Assembly (NCBI GenBank): GCA_035718415.1
Contig: DASTHB010000019.1
Span: 1-36,776 of the forward strand
Origin: Minisyncoccota bacterium
GTDB lineage: Bacteria; Patescibacteriota; Minisyncoccia; Phycocordibacterales; Phycocordibacteraceae
Reading direction: 5' to 3'
Length of the DNA stretch: 36,776 nt
Positions 22,776 to 36,535 of the stretch are shown one piece after another. The notes beneath the pieces are model-generated. The model did not search any database, was not told where the DNA came from, and worked only from the letters and a program-made list of their open reading frames with translations. Every line of letters starts with the position of its first letter. The first letter of the stretch is position 1. The translations under genes and the position numbers were made by a program.

Positions 22776-23765
22776 ATGCGACGGCATGTTCTCTCCCTCG
22801 TTCTTCTTCTAGGCATCCTGCCGGGCCTCGCTTCCGCGCAATCGCTCGACCTCGGGGTAAGCGGCGATGCATTCTCCATCTCCGTATTTCCGACACAGCT
22901 CGTGCCGGGGGGCACCGCGACCTTGTCGTTCGTTTCAACGGCCATCGATCTCTCGAGCGCGACGCTCCGGGTGACCGCGAACGGGAGGGAAGTCTATGCG
23001 GGCACCGTGCATGATGTCGACATCGCTCTTCCGAAGGCAGGGTCCGTCACGACCGTCACGGCGACGGTCACCGCGCGCGGTGCGCCGTATACGAAAACCC
23101 TCACGCTTCAACCGCAGGACATCCTCCTTATCGTCGAACCGATCTCGACAGCGCCGGCGCTCTACCCCGGCAAACCGCGCGTCCCGCTTGCCGGCGCTTC
23201 CCGCATCGTCGCCATGACGAGTTTTCGGACCGCCGGAGGGTCGGTCATCGGCCAATCGTCGCTCGCCTACACCTGGACCGTGGACGGGACGAGGATCGCG
23301 AATTCCTCGGGCATCGGCAAAAGCTCCATCATCGTGGCCTCGCCGCTCCAGTACCGCGGTCGAACCGTTTCCGTGGCCGTGTCGACCCAGGATGGAAAAC
23401 TCACGGGCAACGCCTCCTTGTCCATCGCTCCGTACGAACCGACCGTTCGGCTCTATGAGAATGATCCTCTGCTCGGCATACGCTTCGACCGCGCGCTCCC
23501 GGATGCGTACGCGGTCGCCGGCGCGGAGGCCGGGCTTTTCGCAGTCCCATTCTCGTTCGCGAGCGACGGCCATGCACCTTTTATCGAGTGGTTCTTGGAT
23601 GGGGCCTCAGCGCAAACGGGGAACAGCATCACGCTGCGTCCGGCGGGATCGGGAGAAGGAAGCGCCTCATTATCAGCGGTCGTCTCGAAAGGGGAAGCTC
23701 GAGCGACTGACAATCTGCAGATCATTTTCGGCCGAAAATCGGCCCAGAATTTCTTCGGCCTATGA
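22776..23765 (+). CDS. Secreted hypothetical protein with about three beta-sandwich-like segments
   Basis: The Sec signal peptide is MRRHVLSLVLLLGILPGLASA/QS. The sequence is rich in Thr/Ser/Val/Ala, with alternating patterns typical of Ig-like folds. I recognise no family. Confidence 0.6.
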   Translation: MRRHVLSLVLLLGILPGLASAQSLDLGVSGDAFSISVFPTQLVPGGTATLSFVSTAIDLSSATLRVTANGREVYAGTVHDVDIALPKAGSVTTVTATVTARGAPYTKTLTLQPQDILLIVEPISTAPALYPGKPRVPLAGASRIVAMTSFRTAGGSVIGQSSLAYTWTVDGTRIANSSGIGKSSIIVASPLQYRGRTVSVAVSTQDGKLTGNASLSIAPYEPTVRLYENDPLLGIRFDRALPDAYAVAGAEAGLFAVPFSFASDGHAPFIEWFLDGASAQTGNSITLRPAGSGEGSASLSAVVSKGEARATDNLQIIFGRKSAQNFFGL

Positions 23766-24706
23766 AAAAACATCTCATCGTCCTCATCGTCGCCGCGTTC
23801 TTCATCGCCGTTCCGCACGTTTTCGCGCAAGCGGACAATTTCGTGCCCCTCGCCCCGATCTCCGGGCTCACCGACCTTCAGCCGGCTGGCGATAATGTTC
23901 TCGCGACATTTTTCAATAATCTGTATAAATTCCTCATCGGTATCGCTGCCTCGATAGCCGTCATCATGATCATATGGGGCGGTTTCGAATATTCGACCCA
24001 GGACAGCGTTTCGAAGAAGGGAGACGCCAAGAAGCGCATCTATCAGGCACTCTTCGGGCTGCTGCTCGTTCTCTCTCCGGTGCTGGTATTCTCCGTCATC
24101 AACCCGAGCATCCTGAATCTTTCGGTCGGTTTAAAAAAGATCGATCTGACGGTTCCGCAAACGACAACGACAACGAATCCGCGCCCTCCGGTCCAGACAC
24201 CCTCAGGATGTTTGGTGTCCGGGAGTAGTGGGACTGTGCTGCAATATGCGATATGCCCTTCTTCGGATGCAGCAAAGCTTTGGGGTCAAACCTGCACCGA
24301 TAATTTGTCGTCAGTCTATCCCTACACCACGGCGGGGGGAGGTCAGACTTCGCAATATCTCATATTCTGTAGTACGAAAACCGAGTATGTTTTCATTGAA
24401 ACCGTTGGTACGTTCTTGGGAACAATTGAAGGGCTCCAACCATTGGCTAAAACCGACAGTAATCCGAACAATGCCAGCCAAGCGATACAATTTGCGAATC
24501 TCTGCAAGGCAGTCGGTCCTACGTGGGCGACTTGTGTAAGCGACTTAACGGGAACGAGCTTCTCCGTTCCTTGCTCGCCGCCCCCATCAACGCTCATTCC
24601 AGCGGGTCAAGGAAGCGGCAAATGCTATAAAGAAACGTTGACTTGTTTTCAGTCCGCATTGGGCGCTCGGTGCAGCAAAAGTCCGAACTGGGCTCCTTTC
24701 AATTGA
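23762..24706 (+). CDS. T4SS-pilin-like (VirB2/TrbC-type) protein fused to a Cys-rich C-terminal domain
   Basis: The start overlaps the upstream stop (ATGA at 23762-23765). The signal peptide is MKKHLIVLIVAAFFIAVPHVFA. Two hydrophobic helices follow, LYKFLIGIAASIAVIMIIWGG and ALFGLLLVLSPVLVFSVINP, which is the layout of CPR T4SS pilins. A Thr/Pro linker (TVPQTTTTTNPRPPVQTP) leads into a domain of about 165 aa containing 10 Cys. Confidence 0.65.
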   Translation: MKKHLIVLIVAAFFIAVPHVFAQADNFVPLAPISGLTDLQPAGDNVLATFFNNLYKFLIGIAASIAVIMIIWGGFEYSTQDSVSKKGDAKKRIYQALFGLLLVLSPVLVFSVINPSILNLSVGLKKIDLTVPQTTTTTNPRPPVQTPSGCLVSGSSGTVLQYAICPSSDAAKLWGQTCTDNLSSVYPYTTAGGGQTSQYLIFCSTKTEYVFIETVGTFLGTIEGLQPLAKTDSNPNNASQAIQFANLCKAVGPTWATCVSDLTGTSFSVPCSPPPSTLIPAGQGSGKCYKETLTCFQSALGARCSKSPNWAPFN

Positions 24707-24707
24707 T

Positions 24708-25922
24708 ATGCGACGCATCTTTATCATCGCCACCATACTCGTGCTTCTTCTCGGAGGCGGCATCGTCGCATACTTCACTCTTCGCGGAGGTCGCCCGACG
24801 GTAACGGTCGCTCTGCAGAATTCAGATACCGGTCTTCCCGTCGCTGGAAAGGGGACCGTGCCGCAACCCGGCGAAGGGAAAAGCGATACCGGCTCGGCGG
24901 CACAACCGTCGCCCTCGCCGGTTCCCGTCACGAGCCGGCTGGTGAAGGTAAGCGCTGGACCGGTCGTTTACGGCCTGTCGATCGTCGACCAGAAGACTGC
25001 TACAGCGAGCTCCTCTCCAACGACGAACGTTTCCTATATCGAACGGCAGAGCGGCAACATTTTTTCGTACAGCGTCCAAACGAGGACGGCGACCCGTACG
25101 AGCAACCGGACCGTTCCGGGCATCCAATCGGCGCTCTGGCATCCAAGCGGCAGCACCGCGTATGTGCGCTATCTTTCGGGAAGCGATTTCTCCACGATCA
25201 ACACCTTCGCCCTTCCCGCAAGCGGTATCGGTGGTTTCTTCCTCCCGCAGAATACGGTCGACCTCGACGTTTCCTCGACGAGCATTCTTATACTCGCCTC
25301 CGGAGTCAATGGTTCGACCGCGACCGTCGCGCGTGTCGACGGCACGCACGCGGTGAGCGCGTTCTCAACGCCGCTCACGTCGATACGCGCCTCGTATTTG
25401 GGTAGATCGCAATATCTCGTCGTCACAAAAGCGACCGCCACGCTTCCCGGCGCTGCATTTGTCGTCGACGCTTCAGGGAGTTTTTCGCGATTGATCGGGC
25501 CTCTTCCGGGGCTGTCCGCCCTTGCAAGCCCTTCGGGCAAATGGGTGTTCGCGACTTACACCTCGGGCAGCGACACGACTTCGGAGCTCGTGAATGTTGC
25601 CACGGGAGACGTGATACCCGTACCGCTCGCAACGCTTGCAGAAAAATGCGCTTGGTCGGCTGATGAGTCTTCTCTCTACTGCGGCGTTCCTCGCACGATG
25701 CTCACGGGTACTTATCCTGACGATTGGTACCAAGGAGTCCTTCATTTCACCGACCGGCTCTGGCGCATTAATGTGGCGGGCCGCTACGCCCAGCTCGTCG
25801 CGGATGTAAGTAATGACGCCGATACGCCTATCGACATCACCTCGCTCACTATCAATCGTTCTGGTACGGTCGTCGCCTTCGTCAATAAGAACGACGCGTC
25901 GCTTTGGGTGTACTCGCTATAG
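24708..25922 (+). CDS. N-terminally membrane-anchored hypothetical protein, probably a beta-propeller ectodomain
   Basis: It starts 1 nt after the upstream stop. The TM helix is IFIIATILVLLLGGGIVAYF, followed by a Pro/Ser linker. The remaining 300 aa or so are Ser/Thr/Val-rich with recurring strand-like blocks (WHPSGSTAYVRY, SPSGKWVFATY, NRSGTVVAFV), reminiscent of TolB-like propellers. Confidence 0.55.
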   Translation: MRRIFIIATILVLLLGGGIVAYFTLRGGRPTVTVALQNSDTGLPVAGKGTVPQPGEGKSDTGSAAQPSPSPVPVTSRLVKVSAGPVVYGLSIVDQKTATASSSPTTNVSYIERQSGNIFSYSVQTRTATRTSNRTVPGIQSALWHPSGSTAYVRYLSGSDFSTINTFALPASGIGGFFLPQNTVDLDVSSTSILILASGVNGSTATVARVDGTHAVSAFSTPLTSIRASYLGRSQYLVVTKATATLPGAAFVVDASGSFSRLIGPLPGLSALASPSGKWVFATYTSGSDTTSELVNVATGDVIPVPLATLAEKCAWSADESSLYCGVPRTMLTGTYPDDWYQGVLHFTDRLWRINVAGRYAQLVADVSNDADTPIDITSLTINRSGTVVAFVNKNDASLWVYSL

Positions 25923-26651
25923 CGAGGCCATCTCCGCGTCCAATTTTCGGCGCACATACCACTCCTGTGCCGCTCCGGCGAGGTTCGTGGTGATGAAATA
26001 AAGCGCGATGGCGCCTGATGTCGTGTATGAAATGACCCCGATGATGAACGGGAAGACGTACTTGAGCTGCATACCCATCACTTTCTGAAAATCGCCTTGC
26101 ATGCTCTTGCCTTCCGGGGGTTTCAGCGTCCCTTTTAGTGCGAGATGCGCTTGGAAGAATTGCGCGATGCCTGCGAGGAATGCGAGCGTCAGGCTCTTGC
26201 CGGCGACTAGCGTGAGCCCGAGGAAATGGAGCGAGACCGCGCCGGGCGTCGGTGTGAACGGATAAAGGATCGCGGTGTTGATGGCCGGGAACGGCTCGTA
26301 ATAGAAGACCCAATAGACCGCGAGCAGTACGGGGATCTGTATGAACGCGGTCAATAGGCTCGCGAACGGGTTCACTTCGGCTTCGCGGTAGAGCGCAAGC
26401 GTCTCGAGCGCTTCCTGCTCTTTGTTATCCTTGTGCTTCTCCTTGAGATCCTTGAGTTTCGGTTCAAGGACTTTCATGATCCGTTGCGTCCGGGCCGCTG
26501 AAAGCGAGAAGGGGAGGAGGACGAGGCGGATGAGTATGGTCAGGATTATGACGGCCACGCCCACGTCCCCGCCAGGAACGAACGAGACGACCGCCACGAG
26601 GGCGTTATAGATCGGGTTATAGAAGACGGCGTGGAAGAAGGACGATATCAC
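25917..26651 (-). CDS. yidC: Membrane protein insertase YidC/Oxa1 family (short form)
   Basis: Motifs are GVAVIILTILIRLVLLPFS, KLKDLKEKHKDNKE and NPFASLLTAFIQIPVLLAVYWVF. It sits downstream of rnpA. Its stop overlaps the convergent gene's stop in CTATAG (25917-25922). Confidence 0.9.
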   Translation of the reverse strand: MISSFFHAVFYNPIYNALVAVVSFVPGGDVGVAVIILTILIRLVLLPFSLSAARTQRIMKVLEPKLKDLKEKHKDNKEQEALETLALYREAEVNPFASLLTAFIQIPVLLAVYWVFYYEPFPAINTAILYPFTPTPGAVSLHFLGLTLVAGKSLTLAFLAGIAQFFQAHLALKGTLKPPEGKSMQGDFQKVMGMQLKYVFPFIIGVISYTTSGAIALYFITTNLAGAAQEWYVRRKLDAEMASL

Positions 26652-26652
26652 G

Positions 26653-26967
26653 TTACTTTTTGAGACTTGTTATGAGTTCGGTTAGTTCCTGCCGTACTTC
26701 CCCATAGCTTACACTATCGGCAGCCTTTTTCGGGAATATGAGGACGCATTCCGGCAAGGATGGAATGGTCCGGAGGGCTGAAACCACGCGGCGCTTCAGT
26801 TTATGCCGGTCTGCGGACAATTTTACGGTCTTTTTCGAGATGATGACCGCATAACCGGACCCCTCGTTCGGCACTAAAACGTTGAAGTGGGGCGACGAGA
26901 GGCGCTTCCCTGACGCTTTAAGGGAAGGGAACCGCTGCCGGGGTATGCGTTTCCGGCGTGGAAACAC
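26653..26967 (-). CDS. rnpA: Ribonuclease P protein component
   Basis: It is a basic 104-aa protein in the canonical rpmH-rnpA-yidC order, with the motif VIISKKTVKLSADRHKLKRRV. Confidence 0.85.
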   Translation of the reverse strand: MFPRRKRIPRQRFPSLKASGKRLSSPHFNVLVPNEGSGYAVIISKKTVKLSADRHKLKRRVVSALRTIPSLPECVLIFPKKAADSVSYGEVRQELTELITSLKK

Positions 26968-26972
26968 GGCAA

Positions 26973-27110
26973 TTAGACGGCGAGGCGCTTGCGGCCGCTG
27001 CGGCGGCGTCCTTTGAGTATCTTTTTGCCCGACGCCGACTTTGAGCGGGAGCGGAATCCGTGGGTCTTCGCCCGTTTCCGCTTCTTTGGTTGATAGGTTC
27101 GTTTAGCCAT
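26973..27110 (-). CDS. rpmH: 50S ribosomal protein L34 (45 aa)
   Basis: Too short for the ORF track. Manual reverse translation from the ATG at 27110-27108 gives [45 protein letters not shown], with TAA at 26975-26973. Confidence 0.92.
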
Positions 27111-27123
27111 GTTCGAGTTTTAG

Positions 27124-27132
27124 TTATGCACA
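27124..27132 (+). promoter_or_regulatory. DnaA-box-like 9-mer TTATGCACA in the rpmH-dnaA spacer
   Basis: It matches the consensus TTWTNCACA and lies between the divergent rpmH and dnaA genes. Confidence 0.5.
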
Positions 27133-27188
27133 CAATAGTAACAGTTTCTCCCCGAAAGGCCAGTCTGTCGTGCGGCCTAGAATGCGGG

Positions 27189-27194
27189 TATACT
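27189..27194 (+). promoter_or_regulatory. -10 hexamer TATACT located 9 nt upstream of the dnaA ATG
   Basis: The sequence reads GCGGGTATACTTCCGGCATT-ATG. A second candidate -10, TAGAAT, lies at 27178-27183. Confidence 0.4.
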
Positions 27195-27203
27195 TCCGGC
27201 ATT

Positions 27204-28556
27204 ATGGATAAGCGGAATCCTAAAGAACTCTGGGAATATGTGATGACTCAAGTAGAGCTTTCAATATCCGCTGCAAATTTCAATACGTGGTTCAGGAACA
27301 GCTTCATACAGAAGATCGGGGAGGACGGGGTGGTCTATATCGGGGTGCCAAGCCAGTTCTTCAAGGATTGGTATCTCAAGAAGTTCCACACTCTCCTCTT
27401 GAAGATCCTGCGCGATGTTTCCTATGAATTCCGTAATATCGAATACGTCATCGTCAAAGACGAGCACCGCAAGCAGATAAAGGAAGTGAAGCCGCAGAAG
27501 GCGTCCATAGAGCTCCCGCTTGATGAGTTCTATATCAATAAGAGCGACAATCTCAATCCGCGTTATACGTTCGATACGTTCGTCATCGGTTCGTTCAACA
27601 GCCTTGCGTATGCCGCCGCGCAAGCGGTCCTTGCCAGACCGGGTATCACGTACAACCCGTTATTCATCTATGGCGACACAGGACGAGGGAAGACCCATCT
27701 CATTCAGGCGATCGGGAACGAGTTCAAAAAGAAGTACGCGGGCAGGAAAGTGTTCTATCTCACGTCCGAGAAATTCGTCGTTGACTACACTGATTCGGTC
27801 CAAGCCGGCACCGCGAACCGGTTCAAGGATAAATACCGCCATTACGACCTTCTCATCATGGACGACGTGCAGTTCCTCTCGAAGAAGGAGCGGAGCGAGG
27901 AGGAATTGTTCCACCTCTTCAACGCGCTCCATGATATGAACAAGCAGATCATTTTCTCCTCAGATAGGCCTCCGGTCGCCATCCCGGACATCACTGAGCG
28001 GCTCAAGGGCCGTTTAGCGAGCGGTATGACCGTCGACATAGGGGAGCCCGACTCGGAATCGAGGATGGCTATCATCCAGAAGAAGGCGGCGTTGCATAAT
28101 ATCGTCCTTTCCCCGGACGTCATCGAATATATCGCCACGTCCATGAGCGGTTCGATCCGCGAGCTTGAGGGAATGGTCAATAGCATCATCTGTCACACGC
28201 AAGTGAAAGGTTCCGTTCCGAATATCACCGAGGTGCGCCAATCCATCCGCTCGTTCGTGCGACCCCAAAAGACCATCTCCGTGAAGAACGTCGTCGATAA
28301 GGTCGCCGAGTACTATGGCATCGATGAGGAGAGTATTTATGAGAAGACCCGACGGCGCGAGATCGTCAGACCGCGGCAGGTCATCATGTACCTCTTGCGG
28401 GAGGATTTCAGTATTTCGTACCCGACCATCGGTTCGAAGCTTGGTGGACGCGACCATACGACGGTTATCCACTCGTGCGAGAAGATAAAGAAGGAAATAG
28501 TTGTGGACAATGAACTGGCCAAGGAAATACAGAATATTCGGACGCTCCTTGTATGA
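27204..28556 (+). CDS. dnaA: Chromosomal replication initiator protein DnaA
   Basis: Internal Met (MDKRNPKELWEYV) of track ORF 27060-28556. The upstream part overlaps rpmH. Walker A is GDTGRGKTHL, Walker B is LLIMDDVQF, sensor motifs are present, and the C-terminal DNA-binding region is GSKLGGRDHTTVIHSCEKI. Confidence 0.93.
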   Translation: MDKRNPKELWEYVMTQVELSISAANFNTWFRNSFIQKIGEDGVVYIGVPSQFFKDWYLKKFHTLLLKILRDVSYEFRNIEYVIVKDEHRKQIKEVKPQKASIELPLDEFYINKSDNLNPRYTFDTFVIGSFNSLAYAAAQAVLARPGITYNPLFIYGDTGRGKTHLIQAIGNEFKKKYAGRKVFYLTSEKFVVDYTDSVQAGTANRFKDKYRHYDLLIMDDVQFLSKKERSEEELFHLFNALHDMNKQIIFSSDRPPVAIPDITERLKGRLASGMTVDIGEPDSESRMAIIQKKAALHNIVLSPDVIEYIATSMSGSIRELEGMVNSIICHTQVKGSVPNITEVRQSIRSFVRPQKTISVKNVVDKVAEYYGIDEESIYEKTRRREIVRPRQVIMYLLREDFSISYPTIGSKLGGRDHTTVIHSCEKIKKEIVVDNELAKEIQNIRTLLV

Positions 28557-28642
28557 TCTTTATCGGAAGCTTACCCACAGGTTATAACGCGGAGTATCAT
28601 GAAAAGAGCCAGTATTCATGCGCTGATTACGGCTTTTCCACA
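28465..28642. promoter_or_regulatory. Cluster of four DnaA-box-like 9-mers across the dnaA 3' end and the dnaA-dnaN spacer (oriC candidate)
   Basis: The sites are TTATCCACT (28465-28473, +), TTGTCCACA (28509-28501, -), TTACCCACA (28571-28579, +) and TTTTCCACA (28634-28642, +). Each has 0-1 mismatch to TTATCCACA/TTWTNCACA. Confidence 0.45.
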
Positions 28643-28668
28643 CTACTAACAGGACTAATAAGGATGGT

Positions 28669-29769
28669 ATGAATATTTCCTTTGAAAAAAAGATATTCTC
28701 TGAAGCTGTTCATATCGTCTCACGCTTCACTGAACGTAAGGCAGGAACGCTCCCTGCGCTCGCGTCGATTCTGATCGTCGCCGGCGATGAGGGTATCAAG
28801 ATGCGCGCGACGAACCTTGAAACGGGCATCGATCTTAAACTTTCAGGAGACCAGAAACTTCCTGGTGTGGTCGCGATACCTGCCGCCATACTGGTCCAAT
28901 TCGCAAGTTCGCTCTCTCCAGAAGGAAAAGTAACGCTCGAACATACGGGAGACATCGTCACGCTGACGAGCAATACAGGGAAAAGCTCCATAAAGACCGT
29001 ACCGTACGATGATTTTCCCTCCATACCGTTCCCAGAGAATCCTAAGAACCGCGTCGTGCTTCCTGGCGTGCTGCTTAAGAATCTCCTGACTTCGATCGCA
29101 TCGGTCGCTTCGACCTCGACCGTCCGCCCTGAGCTCGCGAGCATCTATCTTTCCATCGAAGGAGGAATCCTGACCGCGGTCGCCACAGACTCGTTCCGTC
29201 TTGCTGAGAAGAAAGTGCCGCTCCAAAACAAAGGAACACAAGGGAAGCTCCTCCTGCCAGCAAAGAATGCCGTCGATATCGCGAGCGCGCTTCCGAATGA
29301 TGACATCATCATTTCATTCGACGAACATCAGTGCGCGTTCGTCTCACCGGGCGGCATGATCGTGTCGCGTCTCACGAACGCAGTGTACCCGGACTATCGC
29401 CAGATCATTCCGAAAGAATCGATCGTCGAGGCGACGGTATTGAAGCGTGATTTCGAGAACGCACTCAAACAAGCGTCGATTTTCTCCGATACGTTCCAGA
29501 AAGTGAAAATGAGCTTCGATATGAAGAAGAACACTGTGGCCCTCTTCGCTCAGAATTCCGAGATAGGACAATCTTCAGAAACCATAACCGCTAAAATATC
29601 AGGAAGTCCGCTCGAGCTCTCATTCAATCATCGCTACTTATCTGCAGTGCTTCCGCTCACGCAAGCAGAAAGTATTTCTTTAACTGCTGCCGGCGTCGGT
29701 CGTCCGCTCATCATTAAAGGAGTCGGTGACACCTCTCTTCTTTATTTGGTTTCTCCGATGAACCAATAA
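28669..29769 (+). CDS. dnaN: DNA polymerase III beta sliding clamp
   Basis: It is 366 aa and lies directly downstream of dnaA, with AAGGA upstream. Family-typical segments are TNLETGI, PELASIYLSIEGGILTAVATDSFRLAEK and PDYRQIIP. Confidence 0.92.
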   Translation: MNISFEKKIFSEAVHIVSRFTERKAGTLPALASILIVAGDEGIKMRATNLETGIDLKLSGDQKLPGVVAIPAAILVQFASSLSPEGKVTLEHTGDIVTLTSNTGKSSIKTVPYDDFPSIPFPENPKNRVVLPGVLLKNLLTSIASVASTSTVRPELASIYLSIEGGILTAVATDSFRLAEKKVPLQNKGTQGKLLLPAKNAVDIASALPNDDIIISFDEHQCAFVSPGGMIVSRLTNAVYPDYRQIIPKESIVEATVLKRDFENALKQASIFSDTFQKVKMSFDMKKNTVALFAQNSEIGQSSETITAKISGSPLELSFNHRYLSAVLPLTQAESISLTAAGVGRPLIIKGVGDTSLLYLVSPMNQ

Positions 29770-32132: not shown

Positions 32133-32630
32133 TTATGAGAGGCGGCCGGCCGCAAGCGCCGCGATGCCGATCGCGATGGCATCGAGTTCATCATCGAGAC
32201 GCTTCTTAGGCGGCAGCGTGATGAGCCGCGGCACCATGAGCGCTACCCCTTTCTTGTCCGATGCGCCGTAGCCCGTGACGGCGATCTTCACCTGCTGGGG
32301 GGAGAACTCGCGGACCGGAATATCGGCCAATCCAGCGGCGGCAAGGATAGCCCCTCGTGCCTCAGCGACCCCAATGGCGGTCTTCTTGTTCACGCTGAAA
32401 AACAAAGTCTCGAGCGCGAGGACGTCGGGCGCGTGTTCCTTGATGGCGTTCTGTATGGAAGAGAAGACGACCGATAGGCGCATTTCCCGCACGCCCTTCT
32501 CCGGCGTCACGCAGTCGCTCATGATAAGCGTCGGCTTCGAGGGATCGCCTTCGAGGACAGCGATACCGAGACGATCGTAGCCTGGATCGACGGCCAGGAT
32601 TCGAAGGGACCTATTCTTCGGTCGATTCAT
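32133..32630 (-). CDS. ruvC: Crossover junction endodeoxyribonuclease RuvC
   Basis: Internal Met (MNRPKNRSLRILAVDPGYDRLG) of track ORF 32133-32720. Motifs are ILAVDPG, LALETLFF and DDELDAIAIG. It overlaps the yebC 3' end by 20 nt. Confidence 0.88.
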   Translation of the reverse strand: MNRPKNRSLRILAVDPGYDRLGIAVLEGDPSKPTLIMSDCVTPEKGVREMRLSVVFSSIQNAIKEHAPDVLALETLFFSVNKKTAIGVAEARGAILAAAGLADIPVREFSPQQVKIAVTGYGASDKKGVALMVPRLITLPPKKRLDDELDAIAIGIAALAAGRLS

Positions 32631-33165
32631 AACCGCGCGCGTTCGTGACCACGCGTTGGATGTCATCGTGGTCGTCGAGCGCCGTGAGAAGGGCGTCGAT
32701 CTTCGACGCGTCCTCTTCACCGAGGTCGACGAGCGGTTCGTTCGGCGTGAGAAGTCCCGCCGCTTTCGAGAACGCCCAGCTCGCGGCGCCAGGCGAGGCG
32801 AGCTCGATGTTGTGCTGCGAAAGAAGGTGCTTCAGTTCCTGCGTCGTGCGGTTCTTACTATCGGTCACGGCCTCGATGAGGATGGCGACGCCGCCGGGCC
32901 CGTACGCTTCATAAAGCACATCGAGCAATTCTCCCGCATCTTTTGCGGTGCCTTTGGCGATAGCGCGTTCGATGTTCTCTTTGGGCATATTGACCGCTTT
33001 CGCGCGAGCGATCGCGCTCGCGAGGTTCGGCGCCGAGACGACGCCGCCCGCTTTCTTCGATTCGACCGTAAGGAGACGCGCATAACGGGAGAAGATGCGG
33101 CTGCGCGCCGCGTCAGTCACCGATTTCTGCCGTTTAATCTGCGCCCACTTGCTATGGCCCGACAT
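32611..33165 (-). CDS. YebC/PmpR-family transcriptional regulator (short, 184 aa)
   Basis: Motifs are MSGHSKWAQIKRQK, MPKENIERAI, YEAYGPGGVAILIE and DSKNRT. It appears to lack about 60 aa of the middle domain compared with my recollection of E. coli YebC. Confidence 0.88.
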   Translation of the reverse strand: MSGHSKWAQIKRQKSVTDAARSRIFSRYARLLTVESKKAGGVVSAPNLASAIARAKAVNMPKENIERAIAKGTAKDAGELLDVLYEAYGPGGVAILIEAVTDSKNRTTQELKHLLSQHNIELASPGAASWAFSKAAGLLTPNEPLVDLGEEDASKIDALLTALDDHDDIQRVVTNARGYESTEE

Positions 33166-33167
33166 AG

Positions 33168-34169
33168 TCAGAACATACCATCCGTTCTTTCACCGCTCAA
33201 ATAGGCGCGGCCTTCCTGGGTCAAGATGCGGCCGCGAGGGCTTCGTTCGATGTAACCGAGCCGAAGCAGATAGGGTTCATACATATATTCCACCGTGTCG
33301 GCATCCTCATGGAGAGAAGCGGCGAGCGAGCGCACCCCGACGGGGCCGCCGCGGAAACTGGTCTTGAGCGTCTCGAGATACCGTCGGTCGTCCTTCGTAA
33401 GGCCCCTGCTGTCTATGCCGAAGAGATCGCACGCCTCGTCGCACAATTCTGTGGAAAGCGGCCGTTCGTGGACCTCGGCGAAATCGCGGACGCGCTTCAA
33501 GAGGGCGTTCGCGACGCGAGGCGTGGCACGGCTCCGGCCGGCGATGCGCTCGACGACCGCGTCCGGCACGGAGAGGCCGAGGAGTTTCGCCGAGCGGTTA
33601 ACGATGTCCCGCAAGTCCTCATCGCTGTAGAAATCGAGCTGGAAGACACCGCCGCCGAATCGGGAGCGGAGCGGTCCAGACAATTCCGCAACACGCGTCG
33701 TGGCGCCGACGAGCATGAACGGCGGCAACGAAAGCTCGACGGTCCTCGCGGACGGTCCTTTTCCGAGCACTAGATCGAGATGCCCGGATTCGAGAGCAGG
33801 GTAGAGAAGTTCCTCGATCTTCCGGGAGAGCCGGTGTATCTCGTCGATGAAGAGCACCGTGTTCGGTTCAAGGTTCGTGAGGATCGCGGCGAGATCGCCC
33901 GCGCGTTCTATAGCGACGCCAGAAGTCGTTTTCATCGGCGAACCGAGCGTCGTTGCGACGAGATAGGCGAGCGTCGTCTTGCCGACGCCCGGCGGACCGT
34001 AAAAAAGGATGTGTTCGGGCATGCCCGACCGCTTCTTGGCGGCATCGATGGCGATACGAACGTTCGCTTTGACCTGCTTCTGGCCTACGTATTCGTCCCA
34101 GACGGAGGGGCGGAGCGCCGCATCAAGGCTGGGCGTTACCAATGTCGACGTGACGGCAGCTCTTGACAT
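33168..34169 (-). CDS. ruvB: Holliday junction branch migration helicase RuvB
   Basis: Motifs are RPSVWDEYVGQ, Walker A GPPGVGKTTLA, Walker B LFIDEIHRL, and the sensor region and winged helix (GLTKDDRRYL). An extended -10 TGATAGAAT lies 20 nt upstream of the ATG. Confidence 0.95.
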   Translation of the reverse strand: MSRAAVTSTLVTPSLDAALRPSVWDEYVGQKQVKANVRIAIDAAKKRSGMPEHILFYGPPGVGKTTLAYLVATTLGSPMKTTSGVAIERAGDLAAILTNLEPNTVLFIDEIHRLSRKIEELLYPALESGHLDLVLGKGPSARTVELSLPPFMLVGATTRVAELSGPLRSRFGGGVFQLDFYSDEDLRDIVNRSAKLLGLSVPDAVVERIAGRSRATPRVANALLKRVRDFAEVHERPLSTELCDEACDLFGIDSRGLTKDDRRYLETLKTSFRGGPVGVRSLAASLHEDADTVEYMYEPYLLRLGYIERSPRGRILTQEGRAYLSGERTDGMF

Positions 34170-34191
34170 AAAAAATATATGATGCTAGTAT
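34163..34191 (+). promoter_or_regulatory. Near-consensus sigma-70-type promoter TTGACA-N17-TAGTAT with a TGn extended -10, reading away from ruvB
   Basis: TTGACA lies at 34163-34168 and overlaps the ruvB start codon on the other strand. After a 17-nt spacer ending in TGC comes TAGTAT at 34186-34191. The predicted transcription start is about 34198. Confidence 0.6.
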
Positions 34192-34197
34192 TCTATC

Positions 34198-34385
34198 ACA
34201 GATTTTGATCCTGTTCATGCTCCTCTAGGCAAGGCTTGACGGCTTCTGGCGTCTCCCCAAGGACTCTCTGGTTTCGGCTGGTGGGCTCCTCAGGTGTTTC
34301 GTCTACCCCGCGATTTTGCGGGTTTTGCCTTGAGGATCATGCACGGGAAAAAAGCGGCGCGGGGGTATCCCCGCGCCGCTTTTTG
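34198..34385 (+). ncRNA. Candidate small non-coding RNA of unknown family (about 190 nt)
   Basis: It is bounded by the promoter at 34163-34191 and the terminator at 34354-34384. It contains no credible ORF. Internal complementarity includes GATCCT (34207-34212) and CAAGGC (34231-34236) against GCCTTGAGGATC (34327-34338), and the hairpin CCCGC-GATTTT-GCGGG (34307-34322). Confidence 0.5.
34354..34384. terminator. Strong bidirectional intrinsic terminator
   Basis: GCGGCGCGGGG (34354-34364) pairs with CCCCGCGCCGC (34369-34379) around the loop GTAT. It is flanked by an A-run (34348-34353) and T5 (34380-34384). It serves the candidate sRNA on the plus strand and the pilB-like gene on the minus strand. 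Confidence 0.85.
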
Positions 34386-34400
34386 TCTGCCCGCCCGTCC

Positions 34401-36116
34401 TTAATAGGGAAGATCGACGGTTTTCGCGAGCTCCGCAAGCGATGTCACGCCGTCGAGCGCCTTCAGTATGCCGTCCTGGGCCATCGTGAGGTACCCTTGG
34501 GTCGCCGCGTGCTTCGCGATATCGGACTCGAGCGGATTGTCGCGCAAGAACGAACCGAGCGCATCGTCCATGAATATCGCCTCATAGATGCCGATGCGGC
34601 CCTTGTAGCCGGTGCCGCCGCTCTCTTCAAGCGGTTCCCATACGGTCTCTACTTTCTGCGGCGCGAGCGACTTGTCCGCAAGCGGCGCGAACACCTTCTC
34701 TATCATCGCCTTTTCCGCGTCCGTCAGCGCGCGCTCTTTCTTTTTATCCGGATCGAGCTTGCGCACGAGGCGCTGCGCCATCGAGACGGTTATTGCCGAG
34801 CCGAAAGATTTCGGATCGACGCCGAGGTCGACGAGGCGAGGGTACGTGCCTGCCGCGTTGTTCGTGTGGAGCGTGGAGAAGACGAAATGCCCCGTGAGCG
34901 CGGCCTGTATGGCGATGTCCGCGGTCTCGCCATCGCGTATCTCACCGACCATGATGACATCAGGGTCCTGCCGCACGATGGACTTCAGTCCGTCCGCGAA
35001 CGTGTATTTTTCCGGCACGACCTGCGTCTGCACGATGCCGTCGATGTGGTATTCGATCGGGTCCTCGATAGTGATTATCTTGATCTCGGGTGAATAAATC
35101 TCCCGCAGGAACGAATACAGCGTCGTCGTCTTGCCGGAACCCGTCGGTCCGGTCGTGAGAAGCATGCCGTTCGTTCGCCGGATCTCCTTTTCAAGCCGAG
35201 CGAGAAGTTTCGGATGAATACCAAGCTCCTTGTAGGAGACCGTTATCGATTCCGGATCGAGAATGCGCATCACGATAGATTCCCCGTAATTGCCCGGGAT
35301 GAACGAAACGCGCACCTCGATCTCCTTGCTCTTGCGAGTCACGGTGAAGCGCCCATCTTGCGCGCGGTTTGAGATATTGAGCTTCACGCCGGCCAAGAGC
35401 TTTATGCGCGAGGTGAGTTGGCGCGAGGTCTCTTCGTCGAAGAAGAACACGTCGGTCAGAATGCCGTCGATGCGGAAACGCAGACGCGTCCGCGATTCCT
35501 CGGGTTCGATATGTATATCCGATGAATGGAGCGCAAAAGAGCCCGTGAGGACGGTCTCGAAGATGCGCGTGACCCGGTCGAGAAGCTTCAGTTTCGATGC
35601 CGACTCAAGCTCCGCGCGAATGGCGGCGAGGCGGTCCGCCGACGACATCGTCTCCATGACGCTATCGGAAACGGAAAGCTGCCCCGCGCGGGATTCGGCG
35701 GCGAACGAGAGGTCATGATAGCGCGTAAGCACCTTCTCGAGGCTCTTTTTCGACACGAGGAATTTCGCGATGGAGAAACCGCGCTTCTCGAGGTCCTCGA
35801 GGAGTTTCGCGAGCGCCGGATTGTTCGGATTATGGATCGCGAGCGATATGTTCTTCGCCGTTTTCACGAAGGCCGCCGCCTCGGCCTCCCGCGCGAGGGG
35901 CTCGGGCACGACGCGCAGCGCTTCACTGTCGATCTCCTGGAGCGAGAGATCGGCATACGTCATCCCGTACTTATCGGAAAGGATCTGGGTCACATCCTCT
36001 TCCTCGCGAGCGCGTATTTCCTCAAGCTTCGTGTCCCCCTTCCCGGTATCAAATGGCAGATCCATATGCGCCCCATCATACCACCCAAGGAGGAGGGCAC
36101 TTGACAAATGGGCCAT
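34401..36116 (-). CDS. Second GspE/PilB-family secretion/pilus ATPase (orphan paralogue)
   Basis: The T2SSE_N-like N-terminal region includes VVPEPLAREAEAAAF. Walker A is TGPTGSGKTTTLY, Walker B is DPDVIMVGEIRD, and the His box is GHFVFSTLHTN. The start at 36116 is supported by TGATATAAT 9 nt upstream. An alternative Met lies at 36065. Confidence 0.9.
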   Translation of the reverse strand: MAHLSSALLLGWYDGAHMDLPFDTGKGDTKLEEIRAREEEDVTQILSDKYGMTYADLSLQEIDSEALRVVPEPLAREAEAAAFVKTAKNISLAIHNPNNPALAKLLEDLEKRGFSIAKFLVSKKSLEKVLTRYHDLSFAAESRAGQLSVSDSVMETMSSADRLAAIRAELESASKLKLLDRVTRIFETVLTGSFALHSSDIHIEPEESRTRLRFRIDGILTDVFFFDEETSRQLTSRIKLLAGVKLNISNRAQDGRFTVTRKSKEIEVRVSFIPGNYGESIVMRILDPESITVSYKELGIHPKLLARLEKEIRRTNGMLLTTGPTGSGKTTTLYSFLREIYSPEIKIITIEDPIEYHIDGIVQTQVVPEKYTFADGLKSIVRQDPDVIMVGEIRDGETADIAIQAALTGHFVFSTLHTNNAAGTYPRLVDLGVDPKSFGSAITVSMAQRLVRKLDPDKKKERALTDAEKAMIEKVFAPLADKSLAPQKVETVWEPLEESGGTGYKGRIGIYEAIFMDDALGSFLRDNPLESDIAKHAATQGYLTMAQDGILKALDGVTSLAELAKTVDLPY

Positions 36117-36125
36117 TGTGGTGTT

Positions 36126-36134
36126 ATTATATCA
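36126..36134 (-). promoter_or_regulatory. Extended -10 TGATATAAT located 9 nt upstream of the pilB-like ATG
   Basis: The minus strand reads TGATATAATAACACCACA-ATG. It overlaps face-to-face with a plus-strand TGTTATTAT (36122-36130) that could serve the lipoprotein gene. Confidence 0.45.
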
Positions 36135-36172
36135 ACAGCCAGTAGAGGTCGTATTCAACTTTAGGAGGCGAA

Positions 36173-36484
36173 ATGAATAGGATACCTGTTCTTCTCTGCG
36201 TGTTTTTCTTGGCCGGCTGCGCCGGCCCAACGATCGTCGCGCACGGCGCGGCGCCCGGGGAGCGCATCACGCTCCCGCCCATCCCGAACGCCCGTTGCGA
36301 CGGAGAGTGGGTGCTCCGGGGGAGCGACAACGTCTGGACCTGCACCGCCGCCGTGGCAGTGCGGCAGGGGACGCCGCTCCAGCGGTGGCTCGTGAACCCG
36401 TATGTGCAGTCGTATGGGTACTCCTCCGGATACATCCAGAGCTGCGGCCGCCGCTTTTGCGCCGGCTACTCCTGGGTGAGGTAG
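36173..36484 (+). CDS. Small lipoprotein (103 aa), Cys-containing, function unknown
   Basis: AGGAGG lies 5 nt upstream of the ATG. The signal peptide carries a lipobox, MNRIPVLLCVFFLAG/C. Confidence 0.7.
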   Translation: MNRIPVLLCVFFLAGCAGPTIVAHGAAPGERITLPPIPNARCDGEWVLRGSDNVWTCTAAVAVRQGTPLQRWLVNPYVQSYGYSSGYIQSCGRRFCAGYSWVR

Positions 36485-36495
36485 TCGGGGATTTT

Positions 36496-36535
36496 TCGCG
36501 CTCGCTTCATTTTCGAAGCGGGCGCGTTTTCTTTT
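36496..36535 (+). terminator. Intrinsic terminator after the lipoprotein gene
   Basis: CGCGCTCGCTTC (36496-36507) pairs with GAAGCGGGCGCG (36514-36525). This gives 12 bp including one G-U pair, followed by TTTTCTTTTC. Confidence 0.8.

Follow-up and report, generated by a model that had tools for sequence, protein, structure and literature searches.

A candidate family of stand-alone structured RNA genes divergent from ruvB in Kaiserbacteria-like Patescibacteria

A conserved unit in the ruvB–pilB intergenic region

The DNA considered here, referred to below as the window, is a 36,776-nt stretch (contig DASTHB010000019.1, assembly GCA_035718415.1) from a Minisyncoccota bacterium. Within it a 231-bp gap between ruvB and a gene for a pilB-like ATPase, both read from the minus strand, holds a plus-strand RNA unit with its own promoter and terminator, and no plus-strand gene lies 3′ of this unit in the window (Table 1). 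A reading made from the letters of the DNA alone, which we will call the sequence-only reading, had taken the unit for an independently transcribed, structured small RNA (sRNA) gene lacking an open reading frame (ORF), and the comparisons with related genomes described below support that interpretation.

Relatives were drawn from 80 species-level genomes retrieved by their RuvB (77–85% protein identity) and labelled Kaiserbacteria, Paceibacterota, Minisyncoccia or Patescibacteria. In nearly all of them blastn finds the segment 34205–34348 directly upstream of ruvB, at 72–83% identity. A covariance model (R1) built from 73 cores finds exactly one copy per locus in 80 of 80 loci and in the window, with scores of 88–182 bits; scores on the mirror strand do not exceed 39 bits. 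Metagenomes were searched with a degenerate pattern of the invariant part of the RNA, and 114 of the 120 stretches returned carry the RNA while 6 do not; one viral match to the pattern (L081) is a chance 18-mer within a phage coding region with no RNA, and was rejected. Enough upstream DNA is present in 108 metagenome contigs, and in every one of them a divergent ruvB is found 41–202 nt from the 5′ end of the RNA; the RuvB identities among these contigs go down to about 72%. Linkage to ruvB is total, both here (108/108) and in the 80 loci together with the window (81/81). As far as sampled, the family is restricted to Kaiserbacteria-like Patescibacteria.

Fold and covariation of the RNA

The conserved core of the RNA is 139 nt long in the window (34210–34348), about 154 nt in relatives and between 139 and 173 nt among the homologs. 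The sequence-only reading had proposed a unit of about 190 nt; a promoter-to-terminator unit is indeed present, but within its transcribed part it is the 139-nt core that is conserved. The predicted folding energy of 34198–34386 on the plus strand is −94.8 kcal/mol (z = −7.0), and for the core by itself it is −60.4 kcal/mol (z = −3.4); the reverse complements fold less well (−82.3 and −47.4 kcal/mol respectively).

Table 1. Coordinates of genes, promoter elements, helices and terminator at the ruvB–pilB locus
Feature	Position in window	Strand	Remarks
ruvB	33168–34169	minus
−35 hexamer of RNA promoter, TTGACA	34163–34168	plus	overlaps ruvB start codon (ATG, minus strand, 34169–34167)
Extended −10 of RNA promoter, TGcTAGTAT	34183–34191	plus	TG 34183–34184; hexamer TAGTAT 34186–34191; 17-nt spacer
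Promoter-like site for ruvB	34190–34217	minus	−10 TAGAAT (34195–34190) with TG extension; −35-like TGAACA (34217–34212)
Predicted transcription start (~34198) and short U-rich 5′ leader	34198–34209	plus	inferred from −10 position
P1 closing helix, 5′ strand	34210–34230	plus	pairs with 34327–34347; 18 modelled pairs, 14 with compensatory changes
P2 hairpin, AGGCU-UGAC-GGCUU	34232–34245	plus	nearly invariant in all homologs
Long arm P3–P6	34247–34304	plus	covariation in P3, P6 and P7
P3	34247–34251 with 34300–34304	plus	GGGCG/CGUCC
P4	34255–34258 with 34293–34296	plus	CCCC/GGUG; register refined by mutual information
P5	34260–34262 with 34288–34290	plus	AGG/CCU
P6	34265–34272 with 34277–34284	plus	invariant tandem G-U; UUCG cap 34273–34276 in window
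P8 hairpin, CCCGCG-AUUU-UGCGGG	34307–34322	plus	every modelled pair covaries; two more by mutual information
P1 closing helix, 3′ strand, and invariant A	34327–34348	plus
Bidirectional intrinsic terminator	34348–34386	both	A-run; 11-bp GC stem (34354–34364 with 34369–34379); five-U run (34380–34384)
pilB-like T2SSE ATPase gene	34401–36116	minus	stop codon 34401–34403

The ends of the core are joined by the closing helix P1, of about 21 bp, which most relatives extend with a U-A pair and further pairs. This is the long-range pairing of GATCCT...CAAGGC with GCCTTGAGGATC picked out by the sequence-only reading, and the inner hairpin that it placed at 34307–34322 corresponds to P8. The centre of the fold is a four-way junction that carries P2, the long arm and P8. 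The rare changes in P2 preserve its pairing (GGUC/GGCC in L010 and L016). A U-rich 3 × 3 internal loop separates P3 from P4 and a small A/CA loop separates P4 from P5; P7 is a variable UUCG-capped hairpin in relatives that is missing from the window, where UUCG caps P6 directly. Invariant residues are located in P2, at the top of P1, in the junction and in the P4–P5 loops, and the conserved single-stranded stretches are just 2–4 nt long. P7, the loop of P8 and the 5′ leader tolerate deletions as well as insertions of up to about 80–170 nt. Two individual loci, together with the P7-less RNA of the window, tell which parts of the RNA are dispensable: L035 (2688–2920) has about 79 extra nt within the P8 loop, and in L023 (2544–2716) P7 is about 19 nt longer.

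The evidence for this structure comes mainly from comparison, which is far stronger than the fold of any single sequence. RNAalifold, applied to a MAFFT alignment that was blind to structure, yields 51 pairs, of which 26 show compensatory changes. When 78 sequences are aligned to the model, 97.3% of the cells are paired and 27 of the 51 pairs are compensatory; with 93 homologs of less than 90% identity, metagenomes included, the corresponding values are 96.0% and 33 of 51. In both cases none of 500 shuffles attained the observed values, and pairing in slid controls was about 46% and 43–50% respectively. When pairs are ranked by mutual information the modelled ones come first; this analysis also adds two pairs in P8 and one in P6, and shifts the register of P4. 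Conservation and covariation in relatives, on which the sequence-only reading had staked its proposal, are thus strongly positive. In addition, 18.6% of the paired cells are G-U and just 1.2% are A-C, from which it follows that the helices exist only in RNA read from the plus strand. We regard it as almost certain that the unit is a real structured RNA gene.

Variable leaders and 3′ ends

The distance between the −10 element and P1 is 10–29 nt in 95 cases and 40–170 nt in most others, the long leaders being due to optional 5′ hairpin modules inserted between the promoter and P1. Given this variation in leader length, the mature RNA is probably cut back to the closing helix. Two types of optional structured module are seen: in one, AUAAGUGUUCCCUUA comes after a hairpin, and the second type is larger, at about 140 nt, and conserved. 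The insert measures about 40–60 nt in L006, L012, L016, L017, L041 and L055, and about 140 nt in L007, L008, L010, L015, L026 and L047. The one module-bearing region scanned against Rfam at permissive thresholds, that of L007, gave no match for the module. More divergent lineages have a short hairpin and a U-run between the promoter and P1, in an attenuator-like arrangement.

At the 3′ end the sequence-only reading had described a perfect terminator at 34354–34384. The 11-bp GC hairpin and its U-run are present, but this terminator is specific to the genome, its sequence not being conserved in relatives, and it also ends the pilB-like gene. An A-run flanks the hairpin 5′, and the pilB stop codon is 17 nt away, which makes this terminator bidirectional and common to two convergent units, the plus-strand RNA and the minus-strand pilB-like gene. 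Among 161 distinct homologs, 83 have a U-rich tail directly 3′ of P1, and the remainder carry a separate hairpin, like the window itself. Unrelated small genes, with a Shine–Dalgarno (SD) sequence and an ATG, start 30–40 nt past the RNA in about 15% of the genome loci.

In eight loci (L001, L004, L009, L014, L028, L037, L038 and L053) the RNA is followed by AGAGAGG, with a hairpin of about 30 nt and a miniature closing helix, CCGTTCATATG-CTTA-CATATGGACGGGATTT (for example L053, 2720–2803, minus strand), apparently an incomplete copy of P1 that serves as terminator. The duplicate contains CGAAC-N4-GTTC, resembling the Gram-positive LexA (Cheo) box. We rejected SOS control of the RNA, since this motif is part of the P1 duplicate in some relatives and is absent from the window.

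A promoter block shared with ruvB

The promoter of the RNA, TTGACA-N17-TAGTAT with a TGn extension, lies at 34163–34191, and each of its elements is found where the sequence-only reading had put it. A consensus scan of the whole window gives it 10 of 12 consensus positions together with the TG extension. The further claim that it is the strongest promoter in the window holds only in part: it is one of just two TG-bearing sites that reach 10 or more of the 12 positions, but the other, at 36101–36130, scores higher (11 of 12). Among the 173 distinct upstream regions compared, 162 have the arrangement TTGACA-N16–18-TGnTAnnnT. TTGACA, TG and TAnnnT are present in all 162 of these detected promoters, with TTGACA and TG exact throughout, and 161 of the 162 read TTGACAT, the CAT of which is the ruvB start codon.

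The promoter-like site for ruvB, on the opposite strand, overlaps the edge of this promoter. Its −10, TAGAAT, is preceded by TGn and shares 2 bp with the −10 of the RNA, and its −35-like hexamer TGAACA falls within the 5′ strand of P1. The conserved A/T-rich block ATGCTAGCATTCTA bears TAnnnT hexamers on both strands, and ATTCTA, which is TAnnnT when read on the minus strand, is conserved in relatives. RNA polymerase would presumably use this site to transcribe ruvB. There would then be two back-to-back extended −10 promoters that polymerase could not occupy simultaneously, and from their overlap the RNA and ruvB promoters should be mutually exclusive. The two genes would share about 45 bp of control DNA, and this may be why no rearrangement separates the RNA gene from ruvB; the flank opposite ruvB is variable among relatives.

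Bidirectional or back-to-back promoters with overlapping −10 elements have been described for many bacteria. The present arrangement likewise has two divergent units and a single A/T-rich −10 block. It differs in that one partner is a structured RNA gene whose −35 sits on the start codon of the other gene, and in being invariant across about 190 genomes and contigs.

The second near-consensus promoter of the window, at 36101–36130, consists of TTGACA, an 18-nt spacer and TGnTATTAT, and stands back-to-back with the start codon of the pilB-like gene at 36116. Downstream of it are a 103-aa ORF (36173–36484) with a lipoprotein-like signal sequence and then a 12-bp terminator (36497–36526). The layout of 36101–36526 mirrors that of the RNA and ruvB, in that the −35 falls on the 5′ end of the gene read in the opposite direction.

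Comparison with known RNAs

Neither the window nor any of 20 loci matches an Rfam 15 family at the gathering threshold. With permissive E-values, scans of the window region and of L007 bring up only sub-threshold matches that cover or include terminator hairpins. The failure of the sequence-only reading to assign a family is borne out by these scans, one of which it had called for, by ARAGORN and by a literature search in which we found no description of this RNA or of its invariant sequences.

Among the sub-threshold matches are CsrC (24.7 bits, against a gathering score of 61) and RsmZ (19.8 against 44), of which the CsrC match covers only the terminator hairpin. The RNA resembles the CsrB/RsmZ sponges (CL00106) in these weak matches and in having several GGA-containing motifs (CAAGGAC, UGAGGA, UCAGG). 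However, the GGA motifs form part of the helices P1, P4 and P5 instead of standing in hairpin loops, there is no repeated-hairpin architecture, and the scores lie under the gathering thresholds, so that we do not place the RNA in this group.

With 4.5S/signal recognition particle (SRP) RNA, RNase P RNA and transfer-messenger RNA (tmRNA), the RNA has in common helix-protected ends, an invariant core with variable peripheral hairpins, a high predicted expression and a single-copy gene present throughout a clade. No Rfam or ARAGORN match ties it to any of them. Unlike SRP RNA (RF00169) it lacks both the GNAR loop of helix 8 and the internal loops of that helix, neither the GNAR tetraloop nor the GGAA...AGCA loop motif being found in the consensus. 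Unlike RNase P RNA it lacks the CR-I/IV/V regions and the P4 of that molecule; none of the Rfam RNase P models matches, and 139–173 nt is below the known minimum length. Unlike tmRNA it has no tRNA-like domain or tag. ARAGORN finds no tRNA or tmRNA gene in the window and Rfam no tRNA or tmRNA match there, in agreement with the remark in the sequence-only reading that signatures of SRP RNA, tmRNA and tRNA are not to be seen.

The raiA motif and the Pedo-repair motif are lineage-specific orphan structured RNAs that were found by comparative genomics, and some orphan structured RNAs consistently adjoin DNA-repair genes. The RNA described here resembles these two motifs in being defined by covariation, confined to one clade and without an assigned function. 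It is related to neither in sequence or structure (all are in Rfam and none matched), and it differs from them in its clearly defined promoter and terminator and in the fusion of its promoter with that of ruvB.

Interpretation of the unit and its alternatives

The unit shows the features of a stand-alone sRNA gene, namely its own promoter, its own terminator, a conserved extent and no conserved ORF. We propose, with a probability of roughly 0.8, that it is a stand-alone gene for a stable structured RNA, extending on the plus strand from 34198 to about 34386 and representing a previously undescribed Kaiserbacteria-like family. The family is new, but its general kind, the stand-alone structured bacterial small RNA, is familiar. 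As both of its ends are buried in a helix of 21–24 bp, the RNA would be abundant and stable, and it is presumably trimmed from its variable 5′ leaders. The odds appear evenly balanced as to whether it acts in trans by binding protein. The invariant residues gather in P2, the top of P1 and the junction, and the P4–P5 loops while the periphery varies, and an invariant core with a variable periphery is the conservation signature of ribonucleoprotein RNAs; through the bound protein or proteins the RNA might regulate a housekeeping protein or provide the scaffold of a ribonucleoprotein. More doubtful is a fuller version of this proposal, in which the RNA would be the core of an undescribed ribonucleoprotein or regulator (and not a 6S, SRP, RNase P, tmRNA, riboswitch or antisense sRNA) with a housekeeping role in reduced genomes, possibly coupled to the RuvB–YebC–RuvC operon through the promoter block.

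Several points weigh against this proposal or parts of it. Fitting to the model biases two of the alignments (A3 and A5) towards the structure, although the MAFFT result is independent of it. The expression of the RNA, its exact ends and its abundance are predictions from the sequence, and a protein-binding role is proposed from the conservation pattern. The absolute linkage to ruvB could reflect a role in cis in the control of ruvB and not a function in trans. Finally, the sampled relatives have RuvB proteins at least 72% identical, and a further search with RuvB homologs gave only relatives at least 80% identical; the clade may thus be narrow, and with sampling limited in this way the gene order has possibly been kept in part by descent.

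Of the other explanations, the one in which the RNA is an analogue of 6S RNA (SsrS, RF00013) has the highest probability but is in our view unlikely. P1 and the long arm would form a rod whose distorted centre mimics an open promoter and sequesters the sigma-70-type holoenzyme. The two RNAs are alike in size (139–173 nt here), in a closing helix of about 21–24 bp that locks the ends together, with a second arm of similar length opposite, in a very strong and conserved sigma-70-type promoter, in the probable trimming from longer precursors with variable leaders, and in a single copy at a fixed locus. In E. coli ssrS is directly followed by ygfA, and at some of the present loci same-strand genes likewise follow directly; moreover no 6S RNA for candidate phyla radiation bacteria is reported in the literature that we searched. 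However, as modelled, the centre of the fold is a four-way junction with two base-paired hairpins and would not form an open bubble, far more of the sequence is invariant than in the usual 6S RNA, and the Rfam 6S models do not match 451-nt regions even at E-values of up to 10 (window) or 5 (L007). The likeness to 6S RNA, whose size range the sequence-only reading had mentioned, would be one of size and shape only. A trans-acting sRNA that makes antisense contacts with mRNAs, for which the stand-alone promoter, the terminator and the U-rich 3′ tail would be typical anatomy, seems to us distinctly unlikely: nearly all of the conserved nucleotides are helical, leaving only the short single-stranded stretches noted above, and complements of the invariant segments are no commoner in the window than in shuffles. 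An orphan riboswitch, in which P1 and the U-run gate read-through into a downstream gene or which acts in trans after binding a metabolite, is more improbable still. A four-way junction with invariant internal loops does resemble an aptamer, and the SD sequence and ATG at about 15% of loci would suit such a role. However, P1, with at least 21 bp, is too stable for switching, no Rfam riboswitch family matches, and the downstream genes are mutually unrelated, most loci (the window among them) having no same-strand gene there. Neither in the window nor in relatives is a same-strand gene of consistent class found 3′ of the RNA, which upholds the view in the sequence-only reading that the unit is not a leader or riboswitch.

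It is scarcely credible that there is no functional RNA at all and that the conserved DNA is upstream control DNA of ruvB, or the 5′ leader of its minus-strand transcript, with plus-strand transcription merely competing with the ruvB promoter. The absolute linkage to ruvB, the overlap of the −10 elements of the two strands and the position of the −35-like hexamer of ruvB inside P1 would all fit this explanation. Against it, compensatory changes keep RNA helices as far as 135 nt from the promoter, and the excess of G-U over A-C means that the pairing works only in plus-strand RNA; this asymmetry, with the scores of the covariance model, rules out both a DNA element and a minus-strand ruvB leader. 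Moreover, a ruvB mRNA starting from the minus-strand −10 would not include the structure, because that −10 lies downstream of it. The chance that the unit instead encodes a small protein, from a frame with a TTG start, is close to nil. This frame is the sole ORF through the unit, and in 57 of the 93 homologs it runs on without a stop through the whole core, but in the other 36 it closes after 3–40 codons; the lengths of the cores do not differ by multiples of three, variability lacks codon periodicity or any third-position excess, there is no SD sequence, and the TTG lies within an invariant hairpin. We rejected a coding gene on the broken frame and the missing periodicity, and the description of the unit as ORF-less stands.

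Candidate phyla radiation genomes are about 1 Mb in size with very little non-coding DNA, and to our knowledge almost nothing is known of regulatory RNAs in these bacteria. The near-perfect promoter, the 33 covarying pairs and the long invariant stretches, maintained in about 190 genomes and contigs, make it very likely that the RNA is important to the organisms that carry it. If it were a true equivalent of 6S RNA it would explain how these bacteria throttle transcription; should it belong to no known class, 6S RNA included, then it stands for a ribonucleoprotein or regulator not described before. The RNA and ruvB would also be a clear case, found in nature, of an overlapping promoter block that locks together the two genes using it, and the covariance model is ready for use in annotating Kaiserbacteria-like genomes.

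Other features of the window

The window also encodes dnaA, dnaN, yidC, a PBP1a gene and the gene order ruvB-yebC-ruvC. This operon order, without ruvA, is found at 32133–34169 of the window and also in L168, L138, L128, L185 and other loci. RuvA homologs are present 8–10 kb from the locus in relatives, and in this genome the corresponding position would fall past the end of the window. We considered and rejected the idea that the RNA is a stand-in for a missing ruvA, or a mimic of a Holliday junction, since relatives do have RuvA homologs at that distance.

An ORF at 23762–24706 carries type IV secretion system pilin and TrbC-VirB2 domains; the adjoining ORF of 404 aa (24708–25922) has no Pfam match. 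yidC (minus strand), dnaA and dnaN are grouped at 25917–29769, and on account of this grouping the window probably lies near the chromosomal origin of replication. About 5 kb separates dnaN from the RNA/ruvB pair.

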